A stretch of 64,000 bases of DNA from Deltaproteobacteria bacterium (GCA_016235345.1 JACRLG010000028.1:1-64000), one strand, 5' to 3'; counted from the first letter of the stretch, positions 1,249-53,880 are shown. A program made the numbers and translations. Notes: generated from the letters alone by a model not told the origin.

Positions 1249-2489
1249 GATAAAATGCTCTCAAAGAGTTTAAAAAAAAGATCATTACGAACTCTTAGGT
1301 TCTCACGATTTGTATAACGTCCTTGGAATTGACTATTCTCAGTTTCATAAAGGTCCCTAATTGCTCTGACTATTTCATCTTTCTTGGCGATTAAGTTCTC
1401 GCTTCGATCAAGAAATTGACTGAGAGCGAACATCAATGGATCGTAAACGACAGTTGTAGGGCGTCTATACCACAGCCATCCTGTTGTTCGCTTACGCCAA
1501 AGAAAAAATGCTTCTTCACCCAAAAGTTGACATGCTAAGTCAATCGTATTTCTAAAGAGACCTTCCAACGCGCTAAGAACTTCTTCGGTGAAGAGATTTG
1601 CTCGTTGTAAATAAATATCCATAAAAATTTTTAATGGCCCATCCTGATTCAATAGTCGTTGACGGTACGCGAAAAATCGAAGAACCAACTCGACATCATC
1701 CATTCGACGAAAAATATCATTTTCACGGGTAATCTCATTAATTTCTCCACCCGCCAACTCAGTCTCATCAGGTTCGGGAATTCCCCACGTTCGACAAAGC
1801 GCAGGGGTTCGACTCAACTTTATGCACAACCGGTTCATCTTGCCATCGAATATTGCATTACGGCTTTCCTGGTCGGACAGGCTTACACCACCACTATTGA
1901 TCCGCTCGAATACTAACTGCTTTAGGCGTTGAGCTTCAGTTGGATCACTAGCGGTTTCGCGCATCAGAACCACTGAAGATAAATATCTGCGATCCACACC
2001 ACGCCGAACAGCTTCTGGTAAAGTCTCATATGTTCGGCCATTTAATTCCGGCCATTCTTCTAAACCCGCCAATATCAATTTGCTCTGATAGAAATCGCTA
2101 ATAGTAGTTAATCGCTGCAATCCGTCCATTACTTCATATTTAGCATAGCCTACTTCATACAAAAATACTGGGGGTATCGGTACGTTAATGATGAATGATT
2201 CAATCAAGCGAGATTTTTTTATGTTGTCCCACCGATGTCTTCTTTGGAAATCCGGGTCGAGCCGATAGTCTGAACTCGCAACCATTTGCGGAATTTGAGG
2301 CAATGGATACCTCGCTTGTTCTGTAACTATTCGGACAGCGCCAGCGTTGTATCTTTCGTTCAAAGCATCGTCACTTGCTTGAGTTGGGTTCGGACCTTTC
2401 TCCACAGTAAAATCGATCTTTTCATTTTCAAAAAGAAAATCTGATTGCATATTCTGAACCATCCCGTGGGAAGAGTTAAAACTTTTCAA
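1245..2489 (-). CDS. DUF262-domain protein (ParB-like nuclease superfamily; GmrSD, SspE or BREX-associated type).
   Basis: 414 aa. Motifs DPDFQRRHRW, LIESFIINVPIPPVFL, MDGLQRLTT (a DGQQR variant) and ERINSGGVSLSDQESRNA are characteristic of DUF262. The gene is low-GC. Confidence 0.7.
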   Translation of the reverse strand: MKSFNSSHGMVQNMQSDFLFENEKIDFTVEKGPNPTQASDDALNERYNAGAVRIVTEQARYPLPQIPQMVASSDYRLDPDFQRRHRWDNIKKSRLIESFIINVPIPPVFLYEVGYAKYEVMDGLQRLTTISDFYQSKLILAGLEEWPELNGRTYETLPEAVRRGVDRRYLSSVVLMRETASDPTEAQRLKQLVFERINSGGVSLSDQESRNAIFDGKMNRLCIKLSRTPALCRTWGIPEPDETELAGGEINEITRENDIFRRMDDVELVLRFFAYRQRLLNQDGPLKIFMDIYLQRANLFTEEVLSALEGLFRNTIDLACQLLGEEAFFLWRKRTTGWLWYRRPTTVVYDPLMFALSQFLDRSENLIAKKDEIVRAIRDLYETENSQFQGRYTNRENLRVRNDLFFKLFESILS

Positions 2490-2699
2490 TATTTCTTTTG
2501 AGCATACTCTCCTTAAAACATAAGAAAATTATGCGGGCTGGGAGAGGAAGGCTCAGAAATCCGTATAGTAGAATATACCAAAAATTGTCAAAATTCAACA
2601 TACATTGAAGAACTTGATCGCTCGGGACGTAAGCACCATCTGAATTACCGGCTTCCCGACCTGCCCAATGAGCCCGAAGTATGCGGCCGGGCAAACGGT

Positions 2700-4787: not shown

Positions 4788-4855
4788 GGCTGAGCCATGC
4801 ACAAATGACGCGAGGAATTAATAAGGGTTGTGGGTTTTAAGGTGGAGCAAGCCCC

Positions 4856-5122
4856 GTGACGATATTTGAAAAAGCCTTAGTACCGGTCTGGAGTACCGTT
4901 GCCGCCGCAGCGCCGTTGTTCGGCATGGGCGAAAGGCGCGTGATAGAGCTTATCCGCTCCGGCATGGTAAAGGGTTATCAGGCGAACCAGCAGGACGACG
5001 CCCGGCGCTCGTGGTGGGTGGACACCAGGAGCCTTGACCGGTATCACGGAGACAGGGCGGCACAATACCAGGGCGAAGCGGATCTTGTGGCGCAGGACGC
5101 CCTTCGCAGGATGCGCAAATGA
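4856..5122 (+). CDS. Excisionase/AlpA-family HTH DNA-binding protein.
   Basis: 88 aa. The GERRVIELIRSGMVKGYQ ... WWVD pattern resembles excisionase/AlpA HTH_17 proteins. It lies immediately upstream of int and overlaps it. Confidence 0.5.
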   Translation: MTIFEKALVPVWSTVAAAAPLFGMGERRVIELIRSGMVKGYQANQQDDARRSWWVDTRSLDRYHGDRAAQYQGEADLVAQDALRRMRK

Positions 5123-6129
5123 ATCCTTCTTGCCCAACAGATAGTCTTCGTGCTACCTTTCCCTCCATGAGACTTTTTGAACGAAACGGCATATGGTACG
5201 TCCAGGTTCGCAGAGGCCAGAAAATCAGCCTCAAAACCTCGGACCGCAAGGTGGCAGAGTCCGCCTTCCGCAAGATGCAAAAAGAGGCTCTTGAGGGTCG
5301 TTTGTTCCAGTTGGACAAATCCGCCCGCATCCCCCTCCGGCAATGGGGAGAGGAATATCTCAAAAGCCGGGGGCACTTGGCTGACGGCACCCTCAAAAAA
5401 GACCGTATGGTCCTGGGGCTTTTGGGCGATGTGATCGGCCACGACATCGCAATTAAAGCTGTGACTAAAGCGAAACTGGACGAGTTCGTCCGCGCATGTC
5501 TCGCCCGTGGCGTATCCAAGCCAGGACTCAACTCCTATCTCCGCCACATCAGGGCCTGCCTCAATGCCGCCGAGGAGGCAGGGTACCTGGAAAAGCCCGT
5601 CAAGACCAAGATGGTCAGGGAGCCTTCCAGGTATCCAGGCATCCTGTCCCCGGAGCAAATCGCACAGGTAATCGCCTATGCCGAAATCCATGACCCGGAG
5701 ATGGCCCGCATAATCCGTTTCGCCGTGTGGACCGGCTGTCGTCGCGTGGAAATCATCGGGCTGCGGTGGGAGCACGTTAAAGGAGACCTTGTCCATATTA
5801 TAGGCAAAGGCGACAAGGAGCGGCACGTACCTCTGCTGTCAGGGGCGCTGGAAGCGATGGGAGATGTCAAGCATATCGGCCCGGTCTTCTGGCAGGTTCA
5901 CCCGGATGTTGTCACCCATCATTTTAAAGACATTGCCCGCGCCTGTGGCATGGAAAACGTCCATTTCCACAATTTAAGGCACAGCTCAGCCACACAGATG
6001 CTTTCTTCCGGGATTCCGCTCCACATGGTCCAGGAAGTTTTGGGCCATTCCAGCATCGCAACGACACAAATTTACGCCAAGGTTTTAAAGGAGACTTTGA
6101 CCAAGGAGATGCAGAAACTCAAGTGGTGA
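5119..6129 (+). CDS. int: Tyrosine recombinase / phage integrase family.
   Basis: Catalytic C-terminal motifs HNLRHSSATQML..GIPLHMVQEVLGHSSIATTQIYAKV and an N-terminal SAM-like domain. Confidence 0.9.
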   Translation: MNPSCPTDSLRATFPSMRLFERNGIWYVQVRRGQKISLKTSDRKVAESAFRKMQKEALEGRLFQLDKSARIPLRQWGEEYLKSRGHLADGTLKKDRMVLGLLGDVIGHDIAIKAVTKAKLDEFVRACLARGVSKPGLNSYLRHIRACLNAAEEAGYLEKPVKTKMVREPSRYPGILSPEQIAQVIAYAEIHDPEMARIIRFAVWTGCRRVEIIGLRWEHVKGDLVHIIGKGDKERHVPLLSGALEAMGDVKHIGPVFWQVHPDVVTHHFKDIARACGMENVHFHNLRHSSATQMLSSGIPLHMVQEVLGHSSIATTQIYAKVLKETLTKEMQKLKW

Positions 6130-7860: not shown

Positions 7861-8032
7861 CACCTGCCTCCTTAACGAGGCCTTCATGGTAACGCCTATC
7901 GTGCATTCTTTCAACAACTGTGGCACGGTGTCCTGAAAGCATTCCACAGAAGGCAGGCACTCAAAAAAAATGCGGATCACCGGCGTGATTGCAGGTACCG
8001 ATCGATCCGGTGGATTTGGAGGAAAGGAAAAA

Positions 8033-8063
8033 CCGGCTTTCGGAAATTGCCAGCCGGTTTAAC
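8033..8063 (-). terminator. Putative rho-independent terminator after the flotillin gene.
   Basis: Inverted repeat AAACCGGCT..AGCCGGTTT (9-bp stem) followed on the minus strand by a T-rich tract. Confidence 0.3.
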
Positions 8064-8122
8064 CTTTCTTAGTCACCCAGGGTATACGAAGATAGAACTG
8101 CCGCAGGGCATTGGGCCAGCCC

Positions 8123-10974: not shown

Positions 10975-13624
10975 ATGCCCCAGTCATTTTACATCATAGA
11001 CGGATCCGCCTTCATCCACCGGGCCTATCACGCGGTGCGCGGGCTTTCCACATCGAAGGGCTTTCCCACAAACGCGATTTTCGCCTATACCCGGATGCTC
11101 CTGGCGCTCATGCGCGACAAGCGCCCGGATTACGCCGTGGTGGTTTTCGACGCCAAAGGCCCCACGTTCCGGCACGAAATGTACGAGGCATACAAGGCCA
11201 ACCGGCCGCCCATGGACCCGGAACTTGCCATGCAGGTCCCCTACGTGCGCACCATCACCGGGGCGCTTTCCATTCCATACATCGAACTCATAGGCTTCGA
11301 GGCCGACGATATCGCCGGAACCCTTGGGAAACAGGCCCTTGGCCACGGCCTTGACGTGGTTTACGTAACCGGCGACAAGGATTTTCTTCAGCTTGCCGCC
11401 CCCGGCGTTTCGATAATGGACCCCATGAAGGAGACCTTCAAGGATTACGGGACGATCAAATCCGAGCTTGGCTTCGAGCCCGCGCGTTTCCGGGACGTGC
11501 TGGCCCTTTGGGGGGACAGTTCCGACAACATTCCGGGCGTTCCGGGAATCGGCGAAAAAACCGCGATGGCGCTTATAAAGGAATTCGGAAGCCTTGAAGG
11601 TGTTTACGAAAACCTCGACAAGATCACCAAAAAGAAGCAGAAGGAAAACCTTGAATCAAGCCGGGAAAACGCGTTTTTGAGCCTTAAACTCGCAACCATC
11701 GATACCAATGTTCCGGTGGAGTTTTCGCGGCAATCCCACAAGCCGGGGGAGCCTGACCGGGAAAAACTCGCGCCGGTTTTCGAGGAGCTGGAGTTTTCAA
11801 AGCTCGCTGCGGAATTTGCGGTGATGGCGGAAACGCCGCCCGCCCCCGTCCTCCCCCCGCCGGAATACGTGAGCATCACCGACGAGGACGCCCTTACGGC
11901 CCTTGCCGCCGAGCTTTCCCGATGCGCCGAGTTTAGCCCTGGTGGGCATCAGCCTCGCCACCGGCCCGGGCCGGGGGTGGTACGTCCCGGTGGATCACAC
12001 GGCCCTTGCCGCCCCCAGGCAGGCGGGCCTTGAAAGCGCTCGCCGGATTCTCGGCCCGGTATTTGCCGACCCGCGCATCAAAAAGGTGGGCCAGAACATC
12101 AAGTACGATCTCATCGTGCTGGTTCGACACGGTTTTAAAGTGGAAAACATAGCCTTCGACACCATGATCGCCTCCTACCTCTTAAATCCCTCCTCCCGCG
12201 CCCACGGCCTGGACAGGCTTGCCTCCGACCTTCTGGGCCACAGGATGATCCCTTACGAGGAGGTGGCCGGAAAGGGCAAGGGGGAGGTAGGCTTCGACCA
12301 CGTGCCCGTAAAGGAGGCCACCGCATATTCGGGCGAGGACGCGGACATCACATTGCAGATCAAGGAAAAGCTCGCGCCCATGCTGGAGGCCGAGGGCCTT
12401 TCAAGCCTTTTCGCGGAAGTGGAAATGCCCCTGGTGAGGGTTCTGGCGGATATCGAGATGAAGGGGATAAGGGTTGACACCGATCATCTGAAAACCCTGT
12501 CCCGCGAGTTCGAGGCGGAGATGAAAACCGTGGAAGCCGCGATTTTCGGGCTTGCCGGAGGCCCCTTCAACATCGCCTCGCCCCAGCAGCTCGGCCACGT
12601 GCTCTTTGAAAAGCTGGGCCTGCCCACCCAGAAAAAGACCAAGAAGAAAACCGGCTACTCCACCGACGCGGCGGTTCTGGAGCAGCTTGCGCCCAGCCAC
12701 GAGCTTCCGGCCCAGGTGCTGCGCTACCGGACTCTCGCCAAGCTCAAATCCACCTACGCCGACGCCCTTCTTTCCCTGGTGAACCCGCATACGGGCCGGG
12801 TCCACACTTCCTTCAACCAGAACGTGGCCGCCACGGGCCGCCTTTCAAGCTCGGACCCCAACCTCCAGAACATCCCCATCCGCACAAAGGAAGGCCGACG
12901 CATCCGCGAAGCCTTCATACCGGAAAAGGGAATGGTGATGTTTTCGGCTGACTACTCCCAGATCGAGCTACGAGTCCTGGCCCACTGCTCGAACGACCCG
13001 GTTCTGATCGACTCCTTCAAAAAAAACGAGGACGTGCACACCCGCACGGCAAGCGAAATTTTCGACCTCGACCCGGCCTTTGTGACGGGTGAGATGCGCC
13101 GGCAGGCGAAAAGCATCAACTTCGGCCTCATCTACGGCATGGGGGCGTTCAAGCTCTCAAACGAGCTTGGAATCAGCCAGTCGCTTGCCAAGCGCTACAT
13201 CGAGCGCTACTTTTTAACGTACCAGGGCGTGAAACGCTTCATGGACCTTTCCATCGAAACCGCGCGGGCCACCGGGAAAACCACCACCCTCATAGGCCGC
13301 ATCCGGCGTCTGCCCGCCATAAACGGCAAGGACCGGGTGGAGCGCGAGGCGGCGGAGCGCATAGCCATCAACACCCCCATCCAGGGAACGGCGGCGGACA
13401 TCATAAAAATCGCAATGATCCGGGTTCAGAACGCCCTTATCGAACGGAAGATGAAAACCGCCATGCTGCTTACGGTTCACGACGAGCTTGTTTTCGAGGC
13501 CCCGCCGGATGAACTTTTAGAGGCGAAAAGCCTTGTGCGGGATTTGATGGAAGGGGCGATGGAGCTTCTGGTGCCGCTAACCGTCAACATGGCCGAGGGC
13601 GAAAACTGGGCAGAGGCGCATTGA
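10975..13624 (+). CDS. polA: DNA polymerase I, interrupted by an apparent frameshift near 11905-11935 (5'-3' exo in frame 1; 3'-5' exo-like and polymerase domains in frame 2).
   Basis: N-terminus MPQSFYIIDGSAFIHRAYHA at ATG 10975. The downstream frame carries KVGQNIKYD, RVHTSFNQNVAATGRLSSSDPNLQNIP, QIELRVLAH and VHDELVFE, collinear with E. coli PolI. The two frames overlap at 11903-12033. Confidence 0.85.
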
Positions 13625-13639: not shown

Positions 13640-16560
13640 CGACTCTTGAGTTTTTCTATCTAATCTGCAGCTTCTGAATATATATTATAATCTAACGCAT
13701 CGTCAATTCGAGAATTTAAGATATCAAGCTCATCTTTGGCTTTATTTCGATCATGAATTCCAACATCTGTATCATGTATAATTTGATGTAATATCCTACA
13801 TCTCAATTTTTGATGTACCATTATATCTTTACCTTCAATTATACGCCAGTATCTTGAAGCTTCTTTCCAGTTTTCTTTAGAAACATATAATTTACATTTT
13901 AATCCGTTGACAACATCCTTTTTATCAGGCCTCGGACCAAATTTTTTTTCAATTTTTTCAATCAGATTTTGTGCCTCATCATATTTAGAAAGTTCTATAT
14001 ATATGTCAGCTAGATTTGACAAATTCTCAAATCTAGGAGTATATTGCATTGATGTTTTCTCAGCGAAACTTAACGCTTCCTCATAAAAGCCTTTTGAAGA
14101 ATAAAATATCGACATTCTATGATTATAACTACTATCGTCGCCAGCGCGTTTTAATAAATCTAATTTTTCAATTGCTTTATCATATTGCCCGAGCTTAATA
14201 TATATTAGAGCTGATAAATCGAGAAGTAATGGGTTTTCAGCCTTTTGGCCTTTAATGCTTTCAATCGTATTTTTTGCATCTTTAATGCGTCCTGATGCTA
14301 TAAGTGTATGAATTAAACCATGATAAGTAGCAACAGATCTATTTCCTGCATCTATTGCATGCTTAAAATATTTCGACGCTGCTTCGAATTCGTATCTCTT
14401 CCAATGAAAAAAACCTTTTAAATAAAGACAGTCATCAAATTTTTTATCACAAATAATTTGTAAAAGTTTTTTTGCATTATCCCATTCAGCCAGTCTAATA
14501 TAGGTTTTACATAATAATGATGCTGCCTTTCGATTGTATTCTTGTATTTTTAATACATTTTCTAATAAATTTTTAGCAATTATCCATTCTTTTTGTCCAC
14601 CGATATTGTAATAATCCCTTGCATTTCTCAGCAACATTGATGGAATAACAAAAGATTTGAAATCATCATTAATTCCTTTTTCTGATCTTATACTTGCTTG
14701 TATCGTACAATCAATTACATCCATTCTTGGCGATGTATTGATTATATCCCATATGTTTGTTTTCAAATTTGATAATATTTCATTATATTTTTCAGGGCTA
14801 ATTCTACCTAACACTCTATTAACAGTAGATTTTATTGGTGATGCAATTATAAATGTTTCTTCTAATGCATAAATTAAGCAAAAATTAATAAGCTTTTTAA
14901 TAATTTCGGTTAATCTTTCGGTTTTAAAGCGTGATATTATCTGCAGTGTTTGATAGCTTATAGCTGAATTTTCGGCGATATATTTTAATATAAATTTTTC
15001 ATCTTCATGTAGAATTAATTTTTCAATTATTGGCGCATAAGCTTTGATTTGCAGATTAGATAAAAATTGTTTATCATTAAATAAAACCTCGACAGTGTAT
15101 TGTTTTGCATAAGCTACTGATAGTGATACAGCAGGTGGAAATCCAGCCATGTAATATGATAGTTCTTGAATTTGTTCTTCATCTAGAGCGATATTCGCAT
15201 CTTTAAACAATAAAAAAATTAAGGTTTTGGTATTTTCTAAATCAATAGGCGGAACTTTTAAATATATGGGGTCTAAAAAACTCCAATCTTTATCTTCAAT
15301 AGTTGGTCTGAATTGATGAATTACAGCAAAATATTTTTCTTTATATTTTGATAAACTTTTAAAAAGTTGTATAGCTTCATTAGTATATCTAGATAGCGAA
15401 TCTGTTAATGCTCCATTGTCAATAATTGTAGGCAATTCATTTTTTCCAGATGTCGATGTAAGCAATAAAGCAATTTCATTTATTTGATCTTTTAAATTAA
15501 GTTTTCGAAATCTATTCATTTCACTATTAATTTGATCTTTTGAGTATAATTCACCTGATTCATCGATTAATGCCATATATAAACTGTCCATCCCATCATC
15601 TGGGTCTAACACTATCTGTGGACCAAGATTTTGCGAAATAATGTCTTTGGCTACTTTTGTCAAAAATGTTCTTCTGCCTACATTGGGTAAGCCACCAAGT
15701 ATAATTAAATTTTCATATTCATGGCCAATTCTTTTTCGCAAACTTGCCGAAAATGAATCTTGTAAATTTGATCTACCAAGACATTTAAATGTTTTTCCCA
15801 TATCCAGTAATCTATTTAAACTTGATTCAATTATTCTTGATGCTCTACCAGGGTTCGTAACTTTTTCAATTATTATATGTTTCATCCATTCTGGAATATT
15901 ATCAATTTCTGTATCATCAATTATTATTACAATTGCTTTCTTAATAATATTTAATGAATACAACTCTTGAGCATAGTTTATTTCAAAGTTTACCCAAGAT
16001 GATTGCAATGAATTTTTACTAGCTAATAAAACGAAAATGCTGGTCTCTTTAAGTTTTGAACGAATTTCATCAATCAATAATTGACCAGTTTCAAAACAAT
16101 ATTCATCGAGAATAATATTGCGACGCTTTAATCTGTTAGCCAAGGTTTCAACAAATGCCTTTTCTTTTTTTGAATGACACAAAAAAGCTCTCATGATTTA
16201 GCTCCTTATAGGCTTTTTTTGTCTATTTCAGCTTATCAATTGCCGTTTTGGCCATAGACATATCCCACAATGAGATAAGGAGGTCAACTTGTCGGCAAGG
16301 TCCTCGAATTCGATAAGTTAAACTTCAAATTAGACTCTCAAGCTTCCTTCCTTTCCGGTTATGATTATGGAACGATTTCGTACAGATGTTTCTATCCTAT
16401 TTTGTTCCAACTCGCTTTTCCAATAACTATTTTATACTAAGGATTTTTTTGAATATCAAGTCCCAACTGTATCCTGAAAAATTTTCTGTGTGGGGGAACC
16501 ACCTTAAAAATCCTCTTGCAATTATTTTGAAGCTCGTTTACTCTTTGAACCGGATTCAAT
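13640..16560. mobile_element. AT-rich (about 30% GC) single-gene defence islet.
   Basis: Sharp compositional discontinuity against the roughly 60% GC flanks. It contains only the TIR-STAND-TPR gene plus about 350 bp of AT-rich upstream sequence. Confidence 0.5.
13660..16194 (-). CDS. TIR domain - STAND (NB-ARC/NACHT-like) NTPase - TPR repeat protein (bacterial NLR-like antiphage class).
   Basis: N-terminus AFLCHSKKEKAFVETL...IFVLLASKNSLQSSWVNFEINYA matches bacterial TIR. A P-loop-like ILGGLPNVGRRTFLTKVA follows, then a C-terminal series of TPR-like helical repeats. Confidence 0.85.
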   Translation of the reverse strand: MRAFLCHSKKEKAFVETLANRLKRRNIILDEYCFETGQLLIDEIRSKLKETSIFVLLASKNSLQSSWVNFEINYAQELYSLNIIKKAIVIIIDDTEIDNIPEWMKHIIIEKVTNPGRASRIIESSLNRLLDMGKTFKCLGRSNLQDSFSASLRKRIGHEYENLIILGGLPNVGRRTFLTKVAKDIISQNLGPQIVLDPDDGMDSLYMALIDESGELYSKDQINSEMNRFRKLNLKDQINEIALLLTSTSGKNELPTIIDNGALTDSLSRYTNEAIQLFKSLSKYKEKYFAVIHQFRPTIEDKDWSFLDPIYLKVPPIDLENTKTLIFLLFKDANIALDEEQIQELSYYMAGFPPAVSLSVAYAKQYTVEVLFNDKQFLSNLQIKAYAPIIEKLILHEDEKFILKYIAENSAISYQTLQIISRFKTERLTEIIKKLINFCLIYALEETFIIASPIKSTVNRVLGRISPEKYNEILSNLKTNIWDIINTSPRMDVIDCTIQASIRSEKGINDDFKSFVIPSMLLRNARDYYNIGGQKEWIIAKNLLENVLKIQEYNRKAASLLCKTYIRLAEWDNAKKLLQIICDKKFDDCLYLKGFFHWKRYEFEAASKYFKHAIDAGNRSVATYHGLIHTLIASGRIKDAKNTIESIKGQKAENPLLLDLSALIYIKLGQYDKAIEKLDLLKRAGDDSSYNHRMSIFYSSKGFYEEALSFAEKTSMQYTPRFENLSNLADIYIELSKYDEAQNLIEKIEKKFGPRPDKKDVVNGLKCKLYVSKENWKEASRYWRIIEGKDIMVHQKLRCRILHQIIHDTDVGIHDRNKAKDELDILNSRIDDALDYNIYSEAAD

Positions 16561-16656: not shown

Positions 16657-17799
16657 ATGGACTTTCAATTCACCAAGGATCAGTTGATGTTCAAGGAGGA
16701 GGTCATCCGCTTCGCAAAAAAGGAGATCGTCCCCCGCGTTCAGGAACACGACCTTAAAAACGAGTTCGATTTCGAATCCTTCCGCAAAATGGGCGAGTTC
16801 GGCATTCTTGGCCTGCATTTCCCCGAGGAACTGGGCGGCCAGGGCGCGGACGTGATCACCACGGTGCTGGCTGGCGAAGCATTGGGGGAAGCGGGCGTTG
16901 ACGGCGGACTCACCCTGGCCTACGGCGCACATACCTTTTTATGCGCGGACACCCTCTTCCGCCACGGAAACGACGCCCAGCGCAAAAAATACATCCCGAA
17001 ACTCGCAAGCGGCGAGTGGATAGGCTGCATGGGCCTCACCGAGCCGGGCGCGGGGAGCGACGTGGCCTCCATGACATCCACCGCCGAAAAACGGGACGGC
17101 AAATACATTTTAAACGGCAACAAGATGTTCATCACCAACGGCCCCATTGCAGACGTGGCCGTGGTCTACGCCAAGACCGACCCGGCGGCCCACCACGCGG
17201 GAATCTCTGCCTTCATCATCGAAAAAGGGACCCCCGGATTTTCCGCAGGCCCGCCCCTCATCAAAATGGGCGTTCACACGTCCCAGACCTCGGAACTCAT
17301 AATGCAGGACTGCGCCATCCCGGAGGAAAACCTCCTTGGCCAGGAAGGCATGGGCTTTCTGATGGCAATGGGCACCGTTGAATGGGACCGCTCGGCGCTT
17401 CTTGCCCCCTTCATAGGCTCCGGGGCGTATCTCCTTAAAAAATGCACCCGCTACGCCAAGGACCGCGTGCAGTTCGGCAGGCCCATCGGCCAGTTCCAGG
17501 CCACCAAGCACAAGCTCGCCAACATCCGCATAATGCTGGAAGCGGCCAAGGCCCTTGTTTACCGCATCGCCTGGTGCAAGAACACGGGAAAGCCCTTAAA
17601 TCACCTGGAAGCCGCAGTGGCCAAGCTCTTTGCGGGCGACTGGACCCTAAATCCCATGAACGACGCCATGCTCCTTTTCGGCGGCTACGGCTACTGCCAC
17701 GAGTACGACGTGGAGCGCTGCTTCCGGGACAGCCGCCTCGCCCCCATCGGCGGCGGCACCAGCGACATCCAGAAGATGATCATCTCAAAGATGCTGTAG
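16657..17799 (+). CDS. Acyl-CoA dehydrogenase.
   Basis: 380 aa ACAD fold (N-terminal helical, beta and C-terminal helical regions, e.g. GCMGLTEPGAGSDV, FGGYGYCHEYDVERCFRDSRL). Confidence 0.9.
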   Translation: MDFQFTKDQLMFKEEVIRFAKKEIVPRVQEHDLKNEFDFESFRKMGEFGILGLHFPEELGGQGADVITTVLAGEALGEAGVDGGLTLAYGAHTFLCADTLFRHGNDAQRKKYIPKLASGEWIGCMGLTEPGAGSDVASMTSTAEKRDGKYILNGNKMFITNGPIADVAVVYAKTDPAAHHAGISAFIIEKGTPGFSAGPPLIKMGVHTSQTSELIMQDCAIPEENLLGQEGMGFLMAMGTVEWDRSALLAPFIGSGAYLLKKCTRYAKDRVQFGRPIGQFQATKHKLANIRIMLEAAKALVYRIAWCKNTGKPLNHLEAAVAKLFAGDWTLNPMNDAMLLFGGYGYCHEYDVERCFRDSRLAPIGGGTSDIQKMIISKML

Positions 17800-17804
17800 A
17801 GGCC

Positions 17805-17912
17805 GCCTCAAAACGCGATCTGCTGTGTTGTGCTCAAAGCCAATTCCGTCACGTACGAAAAGTACGCTTGACTCATTGGCTTATCGCACGCCTTGCAGCT
17901 CATCGTTTTGAG
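17805..17912 (+). repeat. Intergenic palindromic repeat element, copy A (subfamily 1).
   Basis: Shares ..AAAACGCGA.., the AAGCCAATTCCGYCACGTACGAAAAGTACGCTTGACTCATTGGCTT hairpin core and ..CATCGTTTT.. with copies C, E and F. Confidence 0.7.
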
Positions 17913-18002
17913 ACAGCCTCTACGGGCGGCGCATTTGAACATCTTGGTGGGCTCTTTGAACAGGCGGGAGCCGAACCGAAGCAAATATAAAGGAGCAATA
18001 AC

Positions 18003-19118
18003 ATGAACTTCGAGTTCAACGAAAAGGAACAGGCATTTTTGACCCAGATTGAGTCAATAATGACCGATTTTGAGCCCATGGCGGGAAAGAGCGTGACCGA
18101 GCCCCTGGCCGCCATCCTGGAAAAGCTCGCAGCCACCGAATATCTTAAGCTCGGCCTGGAAAAGACCGAGGGAATGGGCGTCCCGGTCATTCTGGCCGCA
18201 GCCCAGGAGCGCTTCGCCGCCGCCTACCCCTCGCTCTATCTCACTGTTGAAATGAGCGCCAGGGTTTTCGGGCGCATCCTTTTTTATCACGCGGACGCCG
18301 CCCAGAAGGCGAAATACCTCGCGCCCCTTCTGGCCGGAAAACTCGTCGGTGCGCTGGCGCTTTCGGAAAGCTCCATGAACGTGGACAACGAGCCGCTTTC
18401 CACCACGGCCACGGCTGACGGCGGCGGATACGTGGTTTCCGGCGCGAAAAGCTACGTGGTGAACGCGGGCGTTGCGGACGTGATCGCCGTCGCCTGCCGG
18501 GTAGACGACAAGGTGGGCTTCGCGCTTGTGGACAAAAATGCTGCTGGCCTTACCATCGGAAACCCCTACGCCACCCTTGGCTTCGAGGGAGCCCTGATAG
18601 CGAGCCTCACCCTTGAAAACGTGAAGGTGGAAAAGGGCGCTTTCCTTGGTCCTTACGACGCCAAAACCGCGCTTTCGGCGGTGCGGATGTTCGAAAACCA
18701 GGTCCTCACCGGAGCCGCCGTGGGGGCCATGAAGGCCGCCTTCGAGGCCGCAAAAAAGCACGCCAAGGAACACAAGAGCGGCGGAAAGCCGGTCATCGCC
18801 TTCCAGGAGGTGGCCTTCAAGCTGGCGGAGATGCTGACCTCGCTTCAGACCGGCGAGCTTTTCGCCATGCGGAGCGCCTGGGTTGCGGAAACCACACCCA
18901 AGGAAGCGGAGGACATCATCCTCTGCGCCAAGGTCTTCTGTTCGGAATCGGCGGAAAAGGTGGCCTCGGACGCCCTCCAGATTCTGGGCGGCGCGGGCTT
19001 CACCATCCCCAACGCGGCGGAGCGGGCCTACAGGAACGCCAAGTATACGGCCATCGCCGGGACTTCCACGGAAATCTGCCGGGTTAAAATCGGCGACTCG
19101 GAACTCGGATACAGGTAA
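18003..19118 (+). CDS. Acyl-CoA dehydrogenase family protein (divergent, possibly a partner subunit).
   Basis: 371 aa with ACAD-like architecture but weak conservation of catalytic-region motifs. Confidence 0.75.
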   Translation: MNFEFNEKEQAFLTQIESIMTDFEPMAGKSVTEPLAAILEKLAATEYLKLGLEKTEGMGVPVILAAAQERFAAAYPSLYLTVEMSARVFGRILFYHADAAQKAKYLAPLLAGKLVGALALSESSMNVDNEPLSTTATADGGGYVVSGAKSYVVNAGVADVIAVACRVDDKVGFALVDKNAAGLTIGNPYATLGFEGALIASLTLENVKVEKGAFLGPYDAKTALSAVRMFENQVLTGAAVGAMKAAFEAAKKHAKEHKSGGKPVIAFQEVAFKLAEMLTSLQTGELFAMRSAWVAETTPKEAEDIILCAKVFCSESAEKVASDALQILGGAGFTIPNAAERAYRNAKYTAIAGTSTEICRVKIGDSELGYR

Positions 19119-19125
19119 ACCATTC

Positions 19126-19240
19126 GCCCGTCTAAAAACGCGAATGGCGGTGTCACGCATCACGGCACGGGTCGTCATGTACGAAAAGTACTACTCCTCC
19201 CCGCGCCGCTCGCGAACCTTAGCGTTTCATCGCCAAAACT
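19126..19240 (+). repeat. Intergenic palindromic repeat element, copy B (subfamily 2).
   Basis: CCCGTCTAAAAACGCGAA left end, core GGGTCGTCATGTACGAAAAGTACTAC TCCTCCCCGC and right end TTCATCG. Nearly identical to copy D. Confidence 0.7.
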
Positions 19241-19291
19241 CAACAACTGACATCCAGGCTTCATATCAAGCCTTTTTCAACGGACTCATAA

Positions 19292-23113: not shown

Positions 23114-26100
23114 ATGAATCTTGGAAATTACCTGGACGAGGCGGTCAGGAAGTACGCCCAAGTGCCCTACCTTCGCTTTTACGACGAGACCGTCACCTAC
23201 GCCGAATTCGGGCGAAGGGTGAACGTCCTTGCCAACGCCCTTAAAAAGCACGGCGTGAAAAAGGGCGATTTCATTCATGTCCTGGTGCAGAACAGCCCCT
23301 ACACCCTGGTGAGCTATTTCGCCATAATGAAGATTGGCGCGGTGGCGGGCCCCATCAACGGCTGGTGGAAGGCCAAGGAAGTCGAGTATCTGTTGAACGA
23401 CTCCCAGGGCCCCGGCCTCATCATCGAGGACCAGTATCTCGATATTTTGAAGGAAATCCGGCCCAACTGCCCCAATCTCAAAACCGTCATCCAGGTTAAC
23501 GGGGAAATCCTGCCGGGCCACCTCGATTTCGACGCCCTCCTTGCCGAAGGCGACGAGACCCCTGTCGTCTGCGAGGCAGCGCCCGACGACGACGCCTACA
23601 TTTTCTACACCTCCGGCACCACCGGAAACCCCAAGGGCGTGCTTTTGGCCCACAAGAGCGTTCTCGCCGACATCAACGGAGTGAACGCGGCGCTCAACAC
23701 CGAAGAAGGCATGGTGGTTCTCATCTTCCTGCCCCTTTTCCACGTGAACGCCATGCTCTCCACAAGCTCCTCCATGCAGAAGGGAAACACGGTGGTGCTT
23801 CGGAAGCAGTTTTCGGCGTCCGAATTCTGGGAGGTGGTGGATAAGTTCAAGGTCAATTTCTGGAGCGCGGTCCCGGCGGTTTACCAGATACTTTTAAAAG
23901 ACCCCGGTCGCCAGAAGTTCGATCTCTCAAGCCTCAAGTTCGGCGTCTGCGGCGCGGCCCCGCTTTCTACCGAGACCATGAACGAATTCCAGGCCACCTT
24001 CAACATCCCCATAGTCGAAGGCTACGGACTCACCGAGGCCACCTGCGTCTCCACCATCAACCCCCGCGACGGCGTGCGCAAAATCGGCTCCATCGGCCTG
24101 GCCCTTCCCGGCCAGGAGGTGAAAATCCTGGACCCGGACGGAAAAGAGTGCCCGCCGAACGTTCCGGGCGAAATCTGCATAAAGGGTGACGTTGTGATGA
24201 AGTGCTATTACAACCGCCCGGAAGCAACCGCAGAGACCATAAAGGACGGGTTCCTGCACACGGGCGACGTGGCCTACAAGGATGATGACGGCTACATCTT
24301 CATAGTGGACCGCATAAAGGACATGATCATCCGTGGTGGCGAGAATATCTACCCCAAGGAAATCGACAACGTGGTGATGGGCCACCCGAAAGTGGCCGAG
24401 GCCGCAACCGTTGGCGTTCCCGACAAGACCATGGGCGAGGAGGTCCAGGTCTTCATAGTGCCGCGCGAGGACGACATCACCGAAGAGGAAATCATCGAGC
24501 ACTGCAAAAAGCACTTGGCGTCCTTCAAGGTCCCGAAATACGTCACCTTTTTGTGGGACGAGGACATGCCGCGTAACGCCGTCGGCAAGACCCTCAAAAA
24601 GGAACTTCGCCAATACGGAACAGCCCCCCGGCCCAAGAAAACCGGAGGCCCTGTCGTAACAGTGGCCGACATCTTCGGTACCATGGAAAGCCGGGTCAAC
24701 CCCGAAGGCGTGGCGGGAATCACCGCCAACTACGGCTACATAATTACCGGCGAGGGCGGCGGCGAGTACACGGTCTCGGTGAAAGACGGAGTGGTGAAGG
24801 TACTCTCCGGCATAGTCGACCCCGGCGTCACCACCATGGTGGCTGCCAAGGACTGGATAGCGATAACCCTGGGAACCCTGGACGGCATGACGGCGTTCAC
24901 ATCCGGCAGGCTCAAGGTTGAGGGCGATTTCGGCCTTCTGACAAAGGCAACCAAGTTCTTCAAGAAATACACGCCGCCCGCTGCGGCCCCCCAGGCAACG
25001 GTTGCCGACATCTTCGGAACAATGGAGTCCCGCGTCAATCCCGAAGGCGTGGCCGGAATCACCGCCAACTACGGCTACATCATAACCGGCGAGGGCGGCG
25101 GCGAGTACACGGTTTCGGTGAAGGACGGCGCGGTGAAGGTTCTCTCCGGCATAGTCGATCCCGGCGTCACCACCACCGTTTCCGCCAAGGACTGGATCGC
25201 CATCACCCTTGGAAAACTGGACGGCATGACAGCCTTCACCTCAGGTCGCCTGAAGGTGGAGGGAGACTTCGGACTTCTTCCCAAGGCCACCAAGTTCTTC
25301 AAGAAATACGCTCCGCCCGCCCCGGTTGCCGAAGCCACCGTGGCAGACATCTTCGGAACAATGGAGTCCCGCGTCAACCCCGAAGGCGTTGCCGGGATAA
25401 CCGCCAACTACGGCTATATGATCACCGGCACGGGCGGCGGCGAGTACACCGTGTCGGTGAAGGACGGCGCGGTCAAAGTTCTTTCCGGCATCGTCGATCC
25501 CCAGGTGACCACAACCTGCTCGGCCAAGGACTGGATCGCCATTACCCTTGGGAAACTGGACGGCATGACCGCCTTCACCTCAGGGCGCTTAAAGGTTGAG
25601 GGCGATTTCGGACTTCTCACAAAGGCCACCAAGTTCTTCAAGAAGTACGCCCCGCCAAGCGCTGCGGCCGACGAGCCCAAGGATGAGCTGATCGTCCTCA
25701 AGCAGGTCCTTTCCATTCCCCAGAAGTTCTCCACAGGACCCGTGATGGGAAAATTCCTGAGGAGCCTTAAGGACAAGAAAATAATCGCCAACAAGTGCCC
25801 GAAATGCGGACGCCTCCAGCTTCCCGCCCGCGAAGCCTGCGCCGAGTGCCGCGTTCGCGCCACCGACTGGGTGGAGGTCGGCCCGGAAGGCGTCCTCACC
25901 ATCACGGACGTGGCCTTCTACGCCTCGCCCGACCCTCTCACCGGCGACACCCGCGAGACGCCCTACTGCGCCGCCCACATCCTTCTGGACGGCTGCAAGG
26001 ACCACGAAACCCTTTGGCACGAGCTGAACCCGGACGACATAGGCCGCGCCAAAAAGGGAATGCGCGTGAAACCCGTGTGGGACGACAAGCGCAAAGGAGC

Positions 26101-26137
26101 GATAACGGACATAAAGTACTTTACGCTAATTGACTGA
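23114..26137 (+). CDS. Fusion protein: AMP-dependent acyl-CoA synthetase, three tandem SCP2 sterol-carrier domains and a C-terminal DUF35 (Zn-ribbon and OB-fold) domain.
   Basis: YTSGTTGNPKG, GYGLTE and the GDVAYKDDDGYIFIVDRIKD adenylation motifs. Three 113-aa repeats (ADIFGTMESRVNPEGVAGITANYGY..TAFTSGRLKVEGDFGLLTKATKFFKKY) match the SCP2 fold. C-terminal CPKCGRLQLPAREACAEC plus an OB region equals DUF35. Confidence 0.85.
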   Translation: MNLGNYLDEAVRKYAQVPYLRFYDETVTYAEFGRRVNVLANALKKHGVKKGDFIHVLVQNSPYTLVSYFAIMKIGAVAGPINGWWKAKEVEYLLNDSQGPGLIIEDQYLDILKEIRPNCPNLKTVIQVNGEILPGHLDFDALLAEGDETPVVCEAAPDDDAYIFYTSGTTGNPKGVLLAHKSVLADINGVNAALNTEEGMVVLIFLPLFHVNAMLSTSSSMQKGNTVVLRKQFSASEFWEVVDKFKVNFWSAVPAVYQILLKDPGRQKFDLSSLKFGVCGAAPLSTETMNEFQATFNIPIVEGYGLTEATCVSTINPRDGVRKIGSIGLALPGQEVKILDPDGKECPPNVPGEICIKGDVVMKCYYNRPEATAETIKDGFLHTGDVAYKDDDGYIFIVDRIKDMIIRGGENIYPKEIDNVVMGHPKVAEAATVGVPDKTMGEEVQVFIVPREDDITEEEIIEHCKKHLASFKVPKYVTFLWDEDMPRNAVGKTLKKELRQYGTAPRPKKTGGPVVTVADIFGTMESRVNPEGVAGITANYGYIITGEGGGEYTVSVKDGVVKVLSGIVDPGVTTMVAAKDWIAITLGTLDGMTAFTSGRLKVEGDFGLLTKATKFFKKYTPPAAAPQATVADIFGTMESRVNPEGVAGITANYGYIITGEGGGEYTVSVKDGAVKVLSGIVDPGVTTTVSAKDWIAITLGKLDGMTAFTSGRLKVEGDFGLLPKATKFFKKYAPPAPVAEATVADIFGTMESRVNPEGVAGITANYGYMITGTGGGEYTVSVKDGAVKVLSGIVDPQVTTTCSAKDWIAITLGKLDGMTAFTSGRLKVEGDFGLLTKATKFFKKYAPPSAAADEPKDELIVLKQVLSIPQKFSTGPVMGKFLRSLKDKKIIANKCPKCGRLQLPAREACAECRVRATDWVEVGPEGVLTITDVAFYASPDPLTGDTRETPYCAAHILLDGCKDHETLWHELNPDDIGRAKKGMRVKPVWDDKRKGAITDIKYFTLID
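24661..25680 (+). repeat. Intragenic tandem repeat, three units of 339 bp (about 90% nucleotide identity) encoding the three SCP2 domains.
   Basis: Units begin near 24664, 25003 and 25343. The repeated minus-strand artefact ORFs (MAVIPATPSGLTR...) recur at the same 339-bp period. Confidence 0.8.
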
Positions 26138-26138
26138 C

Positions 26139-26255
26139 AGCCCGTCTAAAAACGCGAACTGACAGTGCCAGAGCTTCAAAGCCAATTCCGCCACGTACTT
26201 TCAGTACGCTTGCTCATTGGCTTATCGCTCTCCTTGCATTTCATCGTTTTTATCC
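26139..26255 (+). repeat. Intergenic palindromic repeat element, copy C (subfamily 1).
   Basis: Starts 2 nt after the stop codon at 26137 and contains the AAGCCAATTCCGCCACGTAC...CATTGGCTT hairpin core. Confidence 0.7.
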
Positions 26256-26305
26256 AGGCTGTAATCCAAGCCTTTTGGGGACGGCTGTTAAAAGGAGGAA
26301 ATGAC

Positions 26306-27202
26306 ATGAGTCAGGAACATAGAGACTGCTTCGTGGTGGCTGGCAAGCTCGCCCTTCCCTACCAGTATTTTGCGGGAAGCACGGGGTCGAAGTTCATCAC
26401 AACGCTTAGGGACAAGAAACAGATTCTCGGAGTCAGGTGCGACAAGTGCAACAAGGTTTTCGTTCCGCCCCGCAAAAACTGCGAGGTCTGCCTGTCGCCT
26501 ACCGGCGACAACTGGGTTGAACTGAAGGACACCGGCACGGTGGTCAACTGGACCGTCATCCGCTACGCCGAGCCGCACCAGCCCGTTGCGCCGCCATACA
26601 TTCTGGCCCTCATCAAGCTGGACGGCGCCGACACGCCCTTCGCCCACATAGTGACGGGCATCGCCGCCAGCCAGATGAAGGAAGGCCAGAGGGTCAAGGC
26701 CCGCTTCGCCAAAAAGACCACCAACACCATCATGGACATAGAATGCTTCAGGCCGCTCCCGCCCAAATTCCAGGTGGGCTACACCTACGACGAGCTTGAA
26801 ATCGGCATGTCCGCAAGTTTCACCAAGACCATCACAGAGACCGACGTCTACCTTTTCGCGGGCATTTCGGGCGACTTCAACCCCATGCATCTTAATGAGG
26901 AATTCGCAAAGCTTACGCCCTTCGGCACCCGCATAGCCCACGGAGCCCTTCCCCAGAGCCTCATCGCAAGTGTTCTGGGCATGAAGCTTCCGGGCCTTGG
27001 CACGGTGGCCCTTGAAATCAACACGCGCTTTCTCGGCCCCACCTACTTCGGCGACACGGTGACAGCCTCCGCCGAAGTTGTGGAAAAGCTCGAAAAAAAG
27101 CGCTGGGTGCGTCTCAATCTTTCCTGGACCAACCAGAAGGATCAATTGATCGGCACGGGCACAGCCTTGGTCATACCTCCCGCCCCCGTGCAGACCGACT
27201 AA
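26306..27202 (+). CDS. DUF35 (Zn-ribbon and OB-fold) - MaoC-like (R)-hydratase fusion, ChsH2-like.
   Basis: N-terminus CDKCNKVFVPPRKNCEVC plus OB fold. C-terminal hot-dog motifs FAGISGDFNPMHLNEEFA and IAHGAL. RBS AAAGGAGGA precedes ATG 26306. Confidence 0.8.
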   Translation: MSQEHRDCFVVAGKLALPYQYFAGSTGSKFITTLRDKKQILGVRCDKCNKVFVPPRKNCEVCLSPTGDNWVELKDTGTVVNWTVIRYAEPHQPVAPPYILALIKLDGADTPFAHIVTGIAASQMKEGQRVKARFAKKTTNTIMDIECFRPLPPKFQVGYTYDELEIGMSASFTKTITETDVYLFAGISGDFNPMHLNEEFAKLTPFGTRIAHGALPQSLIASVLGMKLPGLGTVALEINTRFLGPTYFGDTVTASAEVVEKLEKKRWVRLNLSWTNQKDQLIGTGTALVIPPAPVQTD

Positions 27203-27308
27203 AAACGCGAATCGCTGTGTCAGAGCAAAGCGGGCGGGTCGTCATGTACGGCAAGTACTATTCCTCCCCGCCCGCTTCACTCTTCCTTGCGCTTCATCGT
27301 TTTTATCC
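27196..27308 (+). repeat. Intergenic palindromic repeat element, copy D (subfamily 2).
   Basis: GACTAAAAACGCGAA overlaps the stop codon of the upstream gene. Core GGGTCGTCATGTACGGCAAGTACTATTCCTCCCCGC. Confidence 0.7.
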
Positions 27309-27364
27309 GGTCTGCATGTGAATGCCTCCGGGCAGCAGTCCGATTAGTCATGGGGTTTTCCATT

Positions 27365-36003: not shown

Positions 36004-37230
36004 ATGCGAGATGTTGCGGTTGTGGGCGTGGGAATGACCCAGTTCGGAAAATGGCCGGAAAAGGGCATAAAAGATTTGGTGCGCGAAGCGGTTACCGACG
36101 CAATGGCCGACTGCGGCGCCGAAATACCGGACTTCGAGGCGGCCTATGTGGGCTCGGCGGCTGCGGGCCTTATGACCGGCCAGGAGCAGATAAGAGCCCA
36201 GGTCACCTTGTCTGCAATGGGGATAGAAGGCATTCCCATGTATAATCTCGAAAACGCCTGCGCAAGCTCCTCCACGGCTTTTCACACAGCGTGGGCGGCG
36301 GTGGGCGCGGGCCTTTACGACTGCGCCCTGGTTGTGGGCTTTGAAAAACTTTACGATGTTGACAAGAAAAAATCCTTCGCAGCCCTGGGTACGGCCGTCG
36401 ACGTGGAGATGGTGAAAAAATTCCTGGAGGATTTCGCCAAGCAACAAAAATCCAAGGAAAAAATCCTCTCCGAAGGCGCGGGCGAGAAAAAATCCATCTT
36501 CATGGACATGTACGCCTACTACACCCGCATGTACATGGATAAATACAACCTGACCCAGGAGCACTTCGGCAAAATCGCCGTAAAGAGCCACAAGAACGGC
36601 GCGAAAAATCCCCACGCACAATACCGCGAGGAAGTGACCCTCGAACAGGTGCTTAATTCCGGCGACGTTGCCTTTCCCCTCACCCGCATGATGTGCTCGC
36701 CCATCGGCGACGGGGCGGCGGCGGCCATAGTCTGCTCCAGGGAACGGGCAGCCAGCTTCAAAAAGCACGCGCCGGTCTGGGTGGCCGCCTCGGTGGTGGG
36801 TTCCGGCAAGCCCTCGGCGGGCCTTTCGGACACCTTGACCAAGCGCCTCGGCCCCAAGGCCTTCGCCGCAGCCGGAGTCGACCCCAAAGACATCAACGTG
36901 ATAGAGGTCCACGACGCCACAAGCCCCTCCGAGATCATCACCCTGATAGAGCTTGGACTGGTTCCGGGCGACCAGGCAGGGCGCTACATCGATGACGGGC
37001 TCCTGGAAATCGACGGAATCCTTGCGTCCAACACATCGGGCGGCCTGGCCTCCAAGGGGCATCCCATCGGGGCCACCGGAACCGGCCAGATTCACGAGAT
37101 CGTCAACCAGCTTCGCGGCACAGCAGGCCCCCGTCAGGTGAAAAACCCCAAGATCGGCATGACCCACAACGGAGGCGGAATACTGGGGGTGGATGCGGCG
37201 GCTATGACGCTTCACGTTTTCAGGGCGTGA
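36004..37230 (+). CDS. SCP-x type thiolase / nonspecific lipid-transfer-protein-like thiolase.
   Basis: 408 aa (VAVVGVGMTQFGK, NACASSSTAF, NTSGGLASKGHPIGATG). Confidence 0.85.
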   Translation: MRDVAVVGVGMTQFGKWPEKGIKDLVREAVTDAMADCGAEIPDFEAAYVGSAAAGLMTGQEQIRAQVTLSAMGIEGIPMYNLENACASSSTAFHTAWAAVGAGLYDCALVVGFEKLYDVDKKKSFAALGTAVDVEMVKKFLEDFAKQQKSKEKILSEGAGEKKSIFMDMYAYYTRMYMDKYNLTQEHFGKIAVKSHKNGAKNPHAQYREEVTLEQVLNSGDVAFPLTRMMCSPIGDGAAAAIVCSRERAASFKKHAPVWVAASVVGSGKPSAGLSDTLTKRLGPKAFAAAGVDPKDINVIEVHDATSPSEIITLIELGLVPGDQAGRYIDDGLLEIDGILASNTSGGLASKGHPIGATGTGQIHEIVNQLRGTAGPRQVKNPKIGMTHNGGGILGVDAAAMTLHVFRA

Positions 37231-37232
37231 CA

Positions 37233-37346
37233 GGCGTCCAAAAACGCGAACTGGCAGTGCCAGAGCTTCAAAGCCAATTCCGCCACGTACTTTTAGTACG
37301 CGCGGCTCTTATGGCTTCTCGCGCGACGCGTTCATCGTTTTTGACC
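37233..37346 (+). repeat. Intergenic palindromic repeat element, copy E (subfamily 1).
   Basis: Starts 3 nt after the stop at 37230. Shares the AAAACGCGAACTGGCAGTGCCAGAGCTTCAAAGCCAATTCCGCCACGTAC core. Confidence 0.7.
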
Positions 37347-37419
37347 GCCCTTTCCGGTGGTGCCCTTAAAGAAACCAAACAATATTCATTTTCAACTGGC
37401 ATTACAAGGAGGCGTCAGC

Positions 37420-53275: not shown

Positions 53276-53298
53276 TTTGCGCCTCCTAAATTCATTAA

Positions 53299-53319
53299 AT
53301 CCTACCTTGACGGTAGGAT
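53299..53319. promoter_or_regulatory. Putative operator: perfect 8-bp inverted repeat ATCCTACC-N5-GGTAGGAT about 25 bp upstream of the efflux operon start.
   Basis: The palindrome sits in an AT-rich promoter region, next to direct CTTGnnAA repeats and an AAACATGTTT palindrome further upstream. Confidence 0.25.
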
Positions 53320-53728: not shown

Positions 53729-53880
53729 TTAACGCAATAATGATGGGCCTGTAACAAGCCCCGGCTGTGAAGGCGTCAAAGAAGCATGGCGGCCCGGAAG
53801 TTTAAAGAAGTGCCCAGAAGGCGTTTCGGAAACCCTGCAAGGCCTTTCCAAAACCTGACCCGCAGACAAAAGGAGGAAAC

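Follow-up and report, generated by a model that had tools for sequence, protein, structure and literature searches.

The window, by which we mean the whole 64,000-nt stretch of DNA analysed here, holds at 26138-26287 a palindromic repeat that begins immediately after a stop codon and recurs at other gene ends. The locus raises the question of what kind of element this is, and whether its place behind stop codons reflects a function in the mRNA or the way in which the element inserts.

Copies in the window and their distribution among genomes

A profile built from the six copies reported in the initial annotation matched the 64 kb at exactly those six sites (nhmmer; E-values from 1e-29 to 1e-36), namely at 17795-17923, 19121-19244, 26133-26263, 27187-27316 and 37225-37354 on the plus strand and at 53732-53602 on the minus strand. 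The six-copy alignment has a mean column identity of 73%, and the left end, central palindrome, right end and two subfamilies described earlier are all seen in it. A wider profile run with all filters off added no seventh match in the 64 kb. A degenerate fragment proposed at 53445-53520 could not be recovered, since it stayed below every threshold (nhmmer --max, E<=50) and is ~70% identical over ~33 nt by eye; the stretch GGCCAAAATTCCGTGAGCGTACGAAGGCTTGG at 53440-53520 loosely resembles the centre of the element. The features of the window are as follows:

17800-17920, plus strand: copy 1, short form (hairpin only), from profile, fold and ORF/Pfam context
19124-19287, plus strand: copy 2, stem of subfamily 2, complete but rearranged, from profile and alignment
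26138-26287, plus strand: copy 3, the flagged copy, complete form, with core 26138-26261 and 3' module 26262-26287
27191-27314, plus strand: copy 4, subfamily 2, short form, from profile, fold and ORF context
37231-37352, plus strand: copy 5, short form, from profile, fold and ORF context
53578-53728, minus strand: copy 6, complete form, with hairpin 53604-53728 and 3' module 53578-53603
53729-53732, no strand: TTAA, left flank of copy 6, half of a 4-bp target-site duplication
53574-53577, no strand: TTAA, right flank of copy 6, the other half of that duplication

The gene layout was taken from a codon-usage gene caller and Pfam. All five plus-strand copies lie between co-directional plus-strand genes of a beta-oxidation-like cluster, which encodes acyl-CoA dehydrogenases, thiolase-like proteins, a 1007-aa AMP-binding/SCP2 protein, a MaoC/ChsH2-like hydratase, a URO-D-like protein and an AMP-binding protein. 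The claim that five copies adjoin or even supply the upstream stop codon was borne out, as these copies either start 0-5 nt after a stop or, at 27191, carry TAA inside the left arm. Copy 1 lies between two acyl-CoA dehydrogenase genes, directly (0 nt) behind the TAG stop of the first (17797-17799) and ahead of the second, which starts at 18003; copy 2 lies 5 nt past the TAA stop (19116-19118) of this second gene. Copy 5 abuts (0 nt) a thiolase-like gene whose TGA stop is at 37228-37230; beyond the copy, an AMP-binding gene begins at 37420. The flagged copy 3 is flanked on the left by CTGA (26134-26137), which contains the TGA stop (26135-26137) of the 1007-aa AMP-binding/SCP2 gene at a gap of 0 nt, and on the right by TTAA (26288-26291), beyond which are a ribosome-binding site, AAGGAGG, and the ATG (26306) of the MaoC/ChsH2-like gene. 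The end of the latter gene lies in the left arm of copy 4, which supplies its final three sense codons and the TAA stop at 27200-27202 (CAG ACC GAC TAA). Copy 6 is located in a divergent intergenic region, between an OEP efflux gene (51899-53350, minus strand) and a Usp gene (53881-54360, plus strand), and is therefore not behind a stop codon.

Other loci of the window were noted in passing. The 1007-aa AMP-binding gene contains three tandem 339-nt repeats (24658-25635), which match its three SCP2 domains; identity to the first repeat is 85% for the second and 80% for the third, and the number that aligns differs among relatives of the gene. Directly downstream of polA (11942-13624), a gene for an 844-aa protein with a TIR domain and TPR repeats (13660-16194, minus strand) has 29% G+C in a region of ~58% G+C and looks like a horizontally acquired, defence-type gene. 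An island-like block at 205-6129, with 42-54% G+C, encodes HEPN (RiboL-PSP), GmrSD-N restriction-like and D5-type primase/helicase (DUF5906) proteins and a tyrosine integrase.

Exact-pattern scanning of one genome per bacterial or archaeal species (185,579 species genomes, the window's own genome not among them) returned 59 loci, about 55 of which are separate contigs of a single MAG, JAKAGN01 ('Deltaproteobacteria bacterium WY2.bin34'). The remaining loci comprise two from a Thermodesulfobacteriota MAG, one from a Desulfatibacillaceae MAG and one contig binned as Woesearchaeota. Proteins of the window and of WY2.bin34 are 66-95% identical, so the two organisms are related but distinct. The profile gave 106 matches in those 350 kb on more than 50 contigs, a density that is inflated because the loci were chosen for holding a copy; the window has one copy per ~11 kb (6 in 64 kb). 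The view that the repeat is dispersed was thereby upheld, as about 100 copies in 350 kb of a related MAG are at odds with an exclusively local duplication. Neither are the copies 3' UTR remnants of paralogous genes, since they adjoin unrelated genes, ordinary metabolic ones included.

No match to a complete copy was found among 72,556 plasmids and 50,697 phage records (blastn), and no pattern match in viral contigs. Rfam returned nothing at gathering score for the whole window and, for two copies searched at E<=10, only noise from miRNA models (E>=1.5). A description of the family was not found in the literature searched on intergenic repeats at stop codons, Desulfatibacillum palindromes, TTAA-target bacterial MITEs and the YTAR target of IS5; to that extent it is unrecognised, as had been proposed.

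The contig binned as 'Candidatus Woesearchaeota archaeon' (L015, JACQXV010000231.1) is a 4.6-kb groundwater contig with copies at 2137-2265 and 826-719, one of them among the best-scoring of all copies, and is probably a mis-binned bacterial contig. Another short contig of 1345 nt (L060, Logan SRR12113394) equals window positions ~17853-19197 and ends near the flanking repeats on both sides; it is the only public contig that encodes the second acyl-CoA dehydrogenase of the window exactly. The family appears to fragment short-read assemblies.

Anatomy of the element and its target-site duplication

Alignment of ~80 copies with their flanks revised the earlier length of ~115 nt: the hairpin core, including its outer stem CAGCCTG/CAGGCTG, measures 122-125 nt, and complete copies, in which a 3' module of 26-40 nt follows the core, reach about 150-165 bp. 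The six window copies have in common the left end ..GTCTAAAAACGCGA.., the centre GTAC-N5-GTAC and the right end TCATCGTTTT, and their stems fall into two subfamilies, AAGCCAAT/ATTGGCTT and GCGGGCGGG/CCCGCCCGC. The inner hairpin is bracketed by A5 and T4-5 tracts that are nearly invariant across copies. A complete unit reads CAGCCTGTCTAAAAACGCGA ... CACGTAC-N5-GTACGC ... TCATCGTTTTTATCCAGGCT-TCAAATC-CAGCCTTTTTCAACGGGCTG and has no coding capacity.

About 28 of 74 copies extend into the 3' module TCAAATC-CAGCCTTTTTCAACGGGCTG, which carries the left end in inverted form on its outer side: the terminal inverted repeats, CAGCCTGTCTAAAAA on the left and the reverse complement of the outer right end, CAGCCCGTTGAAAAA, match at 12 of 15 positions, and the internal right arm also pairs with the left end. 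Among the window copies, the module (..TCAAATCCAGCCTTTTTCAACGGGCTG) is present at 26138-26287, 53578-53728 and 19124-19287, the last of these having a rearranged right arm in which TCATCG is followed by CCAAAACTCAACAACTGAC, by ATCCAGGCT... and then by the 3' module. Short forms are the majority and include the window copies 17800-17920, 27191-27314 and 37231-37352. We also considered the 3' module as a free-standing short palindrome into which the hairpin had been inserted, and rejected this reading because the module was never found apart from the adjacent right arm.

Several short-form copies have another right-hand sequence in common, ..TTCATGCCGGG....GGCTTCGCAT.. (L029 ~100-153, L020 ~7880-7960, L056 ~3080-3178, L009 ~5252-5330 and L027 ~190-279), and the core seems to be joined now to one 3' module and now to another, a mosaic structure reminiscent of BIMEs. 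Some copies host inserts of their own. At L014 2520-2691, an A+T-rich palindromic element of ~172 bp with the ends ACCTATCTCAAAAATAT / ATATTTTTGAGATAGGT lies inside a family copy, between the T-tract and the 3' module, as a nested second MITE-like family. A palindrome of ~42 nt (CCGGGGTCCCCAAGAAATCGCAGATTTCTTGGGGTGGGATT) occupies the apical GTAC loop at L038 3687-3728, and copies at L035 ~2317-2360, L046 ~3320-3362 and L011 ~4552-4592 are interrupted there by similarly sized inserts, apparently of the same kind; the ~42-nt insert is possibly a third, very small inserted element.

The initial annotation had also raised the matter of target-site duplications. Exact 4-mer matches between the left flank and the right side peak at the end of the 3' module (14, versus 2.4 in shuffles), and identical 4-bp direct flanks border 11 of the 28 complete copies (2.4 expected, p<1e-5). 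Five of the 11 pairs are non-palindromic (GTAA twice, TTAC, CTAA and CTAC; 0.39 expected, p=3e-5), and none matches as an inverted repeat. The duplicated target is TA-centred (NTAN), most often TTAA. Short forms have no target duplication at any offset or boundary shift tried. These data show that insertion takes place at a tetranucleotide centred on TA, all 4 bp of which are duplicated.

Turnover of copies and placement at stop codons

Comparison of orthologous junctions showed that copies have been gained, lost and flipped between related genomes. Site 19124 is filled in the window, and no element follows the orthologous stop in MAG locus L057. Site 17800 is filled in both genomes, the L057 copy (1235-1358) having the opposite orientation and different flanks, and site 27191 has a same-orientation orthologous copy at MAG locus L042 2709-2833. 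At the junction corresponding to site 26138, ten more distant metagenomic relatives with the same gene order (65-76% protein identity) have an element-free spacer of 29-65 nt. Two MAG copies at unrelated loci are 98.4% identical, versus a family mean of 71%. Some copies stand in tandem, some have internal deletions and some are interrupted by other small inserts; a direct tandem at L053 (1330-1455 and 1456-1580) is joined via ...GGCCTG-TGA-CAGCCTGG...

With terminal inverted repeats, a target duplication on complete copies, a small, non-coding, dispersed unit and insertion polymorphism, the repeats are probably copies of a non-autonomous DNA transposon (MITE). A transposase supplied in trans would move the element, and many copies would decay to short forms that lack the 3' module or a recognisable duplication. 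Several observations fit this account poorly. No autonomous element with the family ends (CAGCCTGTC..AAAAA-type inverted repeats) was found in ~610 kb (64 + 350 + 200 kb), where a search for a parent IS by inverted end pairs 0.7-3 kb apart or by orphan ends gave only chance matches inside genes. Duplications are confined to complete copies and absent from the short forms, that is, from the majority of copies and three of those in the window. The terminal stem covaries (CAGCC/GGCTG versus CAGGC/GCCTG) and it is the internal core that lineages conserve, the opposite of what would be expected if a transposase recognised the ends by their sequence. Finally, double-stranded cut-and-paste leaves the strand asymmetry in folding (see below) unexplained.

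Placement at stop codons extends to the aligned copies at large. A co-oriented ORF ends within 40 nt of the left end in 50 of the 74. In 22 copies CAGCC is immediately preceded by the stop codon (TAA in 8, TGA in 8 and TAG in 6), and in 6 the reading frame stays open as far as the in-frame TAA of GTCTAAAAAC, which lies 12 nt within the element. In a genome of ~58% G+C, a TAA or TAG stop would often be the sole TA-containing site in a tight operon junction, and an NTAN duplication at such a codon would leave the upstream stop intact, so that insertions exactly at the stop survive; tight junctions of this kind are GTAA-AGCCC-ATG in L038 and TTAA-AAGGAGG in the window. Because the duplication recreates TAA or TAG, the abutment is largely explained, and we attribute the stop association largely to the TA-containing target duplication, not to a demonstrated function. 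This account is good qualitatively and partly sufficient quantitatively. Abutment exceeds the availability of TTAA, which occurs 224 times in intergenic positions versus 13 times in stop context in 414 kb, and is roughly compatible with a YTAR/NTAR target; moreover, 8 of the 22 exactly abutting stops are TGA, which contains no TA. The excess would reflect either a looser YTAR/NTAR target, or drift of TAA to TGA, or added selection or targeting.

The same two junctions, downstream of the AMP-binding/SCP2 gene and of the MaoC-like gene, carry unrelated long palindromes in other lineages, and these inserts likewise begin at the stop codon:

L063 ~4460-4600: unrelated palindromic insert
L075 ~712-852: unrelated palindromic insert
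L070 ~2575-2733: unrelated palindromic insert
L077 ~478-640: unrelated palindromic insert
L064 ~7877-8085: unrelated palindromic insert
L074 ~2010-2160: unrelated palindromic insert
L061 ~13975-14120: unrelated palindromic insert

It seems that, in these bacteria, junctions just behind a stop codon serve quite generally as landing sites for hairpin elements.

The hairpin and its competing explanations

Every window copy folds into one long hairpin (z from -3.2 to -6.5 versus shuffles), in keeping with the imperfect hairpin described in the initial annotation. In the copy alignment, 94.8% of cells are paired and double changes occur in 20 of 31 pairs, the double-change cells numbering 324 versus 101 in shuffled alignments and at most 80 with the partners slid. 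Between co-directional genes, 47 copies lie in sense and 16 in antisense orientation (~3:1, p=1.2e-4); a test of a selection filter found no difference in folding between antisense and sense copies. The strand complementary to the orientation chosen in the initial annotation folds better in 79 of 81 copies, with mean energies of -64.9 versus -54.2 kcal/mol under RNA parameters and -35.8 versus -31.7 under DNA parameters. The orthologous pair at site 27191 is 84.5% identical, versus 54% for the adjacent spacer, and differs by two compensatory double substitutions in the stem. Four remote homologues from at least three other metagenomic lineages (L072 2941-3066, L066 19865-20005, L062 9528-9402 and L064 11512-11636) have different ends and keep the A5/T5 tracts and the internal core; the first three, inspected in detail, lie directly after a stop, in sense, with the same strand asymmetry. 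The core conserved across at least four Desulfobacterota lineages is CTGCTGYGTTGCGC ... ACGTAC-N5-GTACG ... TCGCGCGCCTTGCA. A consensus terminator scan calls none of the elements, and the stem base has an internal loop. A sigma-54 or sigma-70 promoter inside the element was considered and rejected, as the spacing misfits by eye and the promoter scan puts no site inside any element.

Once inserted, the element would be co-transcribed as a very stable, A5/U5-flanked hairpin right behind the stop, where it would probably affect mRNA 3' ends, stability or read-through. Selection on such an effect would account for the 3:1 excess of sense copies as well as for the preserved base pairing. Terminator, mRNA-stabilising or protein-binding roles, as had been suggested for the repeat, are compatible with the A5-hairpin-T5 layout, the bias and the covariation, which are not proof of them. 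Judged from sequence, the covariation, orientation, strand asymmetry and conservation are consistent with an element co-opted for an RNA structure, be it a terminator, an attenuator, a stabiliser or a processing site; they are also consistent with conversion between arms or copies together with a selection filter on orientation. It is unlikely, in our judgement, that the repeat is primarily a functional cis-acting RNA module behind stops, whose placement and conservation are due to selection for function and not to target choice, for which roles as an intercistronic or bidirectional terminator or attenuator, a 3'-end stabiliser, an RNase III site or a ribosome-stalling device come into question. 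Such a module is compatible with a MITE origin, mobility being only its means of spread, and would agree with the hairpin kept by covariation, the excess of sense copies, the layout of the A5 and T4-5 tracts, which is that of a bidirectional terminator, the well-conserved pair at 27191-27314 with its compensatory substitutions, and the homologues with the same core and other ends that stand post-stop and in sense in three other lineages. It sits badly with sites that are gained, lost and inverted between close relatives, with the window copy in a divergent promoter region, with the roughly one quarter of copies that are antisense and fold equally well, and with the failure of the terminator scan to call any element; most copies, furthermore, sit in narrow gaps between co-directional genes, where a terminator that worked efficiently would do harm, and the compensatory changes could stem from arm-to-arm or copy-to-copy conversion. 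Also unlikely is the proposal that the hairpin is a domesticated, strand-specific module behind stops, acting as an intercistronic RNA through which the end of translation would be linked to mRNA processing, attenuation or stability, or as an antisense or template-strand structure. If this were true, the core conservation, strand asymmetry, compensatory changes, 3:1 bias and excess abutment would be signatures of function.

A REP/REPIN-type element, moved as single-stranded DNA by a RAYT (IS200/IS605-like Y1) transposase, would naturally have a hairpin specific to one strand and a bias in orientation linked to replication, and the long hairpin does resemble two inverted arms, one strand folds better with RNA and DNA parameters alike, the terminal stem covaries without a fixed sequence, and alternative right-hand modules form a mosaic as in BIMEs. 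We nevertheless regard this origin as highly improbable, given that complete copies have variable 4-bp direct duplications, which Y1 single-strand transposition does not make, that there is no 20-40 nt REP unit with a conserved GTAG-type 5' tetranucleotide, and that Pfam finds no Y1 transposase (Y1_Tnp) domain among 40 window ORFs scanned. Unit size and target duplications place the family outside REP/REPIN, so that of the earlier label REP/MITE-like only the second half stands, resting on the terminal inverted repeats and the 4-bp duplication. The repeats resemble integron attC sites in being imperfect palindromes of similar size that start at or overlap the upstream stop, with the strand complementary to the coding one folding better, and a local duplication that left behind, for example, the 3' UTRs of paralogues might be suspected where several window copies follow paralogous acyl-CoA dehydrogenase or thiolase genes. 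Both are virtually impossible here and were refuted by dispersal and end sequences: the ends are CAGCCTG.../...CAGGCTG and not RYYYAAC/GTTRRRY, which together with the dispersal excludes membership in attC; copies lie on more than 50 separate contigs beside ordinary housekeeping and metabolic genes; the window has a single integrase (5167-6129), at a distance of 11 kb and in an island of its own; the genes that copies follow are not homologous, and one copy is in a divergent promoter region; and target duplications are present.

Among known systems, the closest analogues in behaviour are Correia/NEMIS, ERIC/IRU and REP/BIME, none of which is known to have sequence in common with the repeats. 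Correia elements (NEMIS/CREE) of Neisseria are non-autonomous units of ~100-155 bp with inverted ends and a TA target duplication, present in hundreds of copies; they lie near genes, are co-transcribed and form long RNA hairpins able to affect mRNA processing and termination. They are not known to have sequence similarity to the present family, which resembles them in being small, non-autonomous and gene-proximal, with inverted ends, a TA-containing duplication and a long hairpin. It differs in duplicating 4 bp (NTAN/TTAA) where Correia elements duplicate TA, in consisting almost wholly of one hairpin with a conserved GTAC-N5-GTAC tip, in its Desulfobacterota host and in the prominence of exact stop abutment and sense bias. 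The enterobacterial ERIC/IRU (127 bp) and RU/YPAL elements are imperfect palindromes that are intergenic, transcribed, MITE-like and patchy between relatives (PMC2759123). The present family is like ERIC/IRU in size, imperfect-palindrome layout, intergenic placement, MITE-like traits and patchy presence, but its sequence and host are unrelated, its complete copies bear a clear 4-bp duplication, and a further 3' module is part of it. REP, REPIN and BIME sequences are likewise abundant, mosaic extragenic palindromes, often a few nt from stops and implicated in mRNA stabilisation or termination; REPs, however, are units of 20-40 nt with a conserved 5' tetranucleotide, no target duplication and a RAYT gene alongside, whereas the present family has a hairpin of 122-125 nt, target duplications and no RAYT seen among 40 window ORFs scanned. 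The 4-bp TA-centred duplication and the GAGCCTGTC..AAAA-like ends recall IS5-type DDE elements. IS5-type and PIF/Harbinger-type DDE transposons make TA-centred duplications of 3-4 bp. The family resembles IS5 and PIF/Harbinger MITEs in its short TA-centred duplication and in its ends, (G/C)AGCCTGTC..AAAA, and no parent IS was found. Its duplications GTAA, TTAC and CTAC fall outside YTAR, the target of IS5.

The repeats are probably an undescribed MITE family that has multiplied in an uncultured lineage of sulfate-reducer type. Such a family can fill a sizeable share of the operon junctions of a lineage and appears to break short-read assemblies. It creates spurious ORFs and donates C-terminal codons and stops to real genes, as the 27191 copy does. 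It also illustrates neatly how a transposon with a TA-centred target duplication can come to rest exactly on the stop codons of a G+C-rich genome while the genes remain undamaged. The roughly 100 aligned copies, together with the remote homologues, form a tractable set for the question of whether hairpins of this kind have been co-opted to set relative expression within operons, a question that here concerns the beta-oxidation-like clusters of uncultured, hydrocarbon- or fatty-acid-degrading Desulfobacterota.
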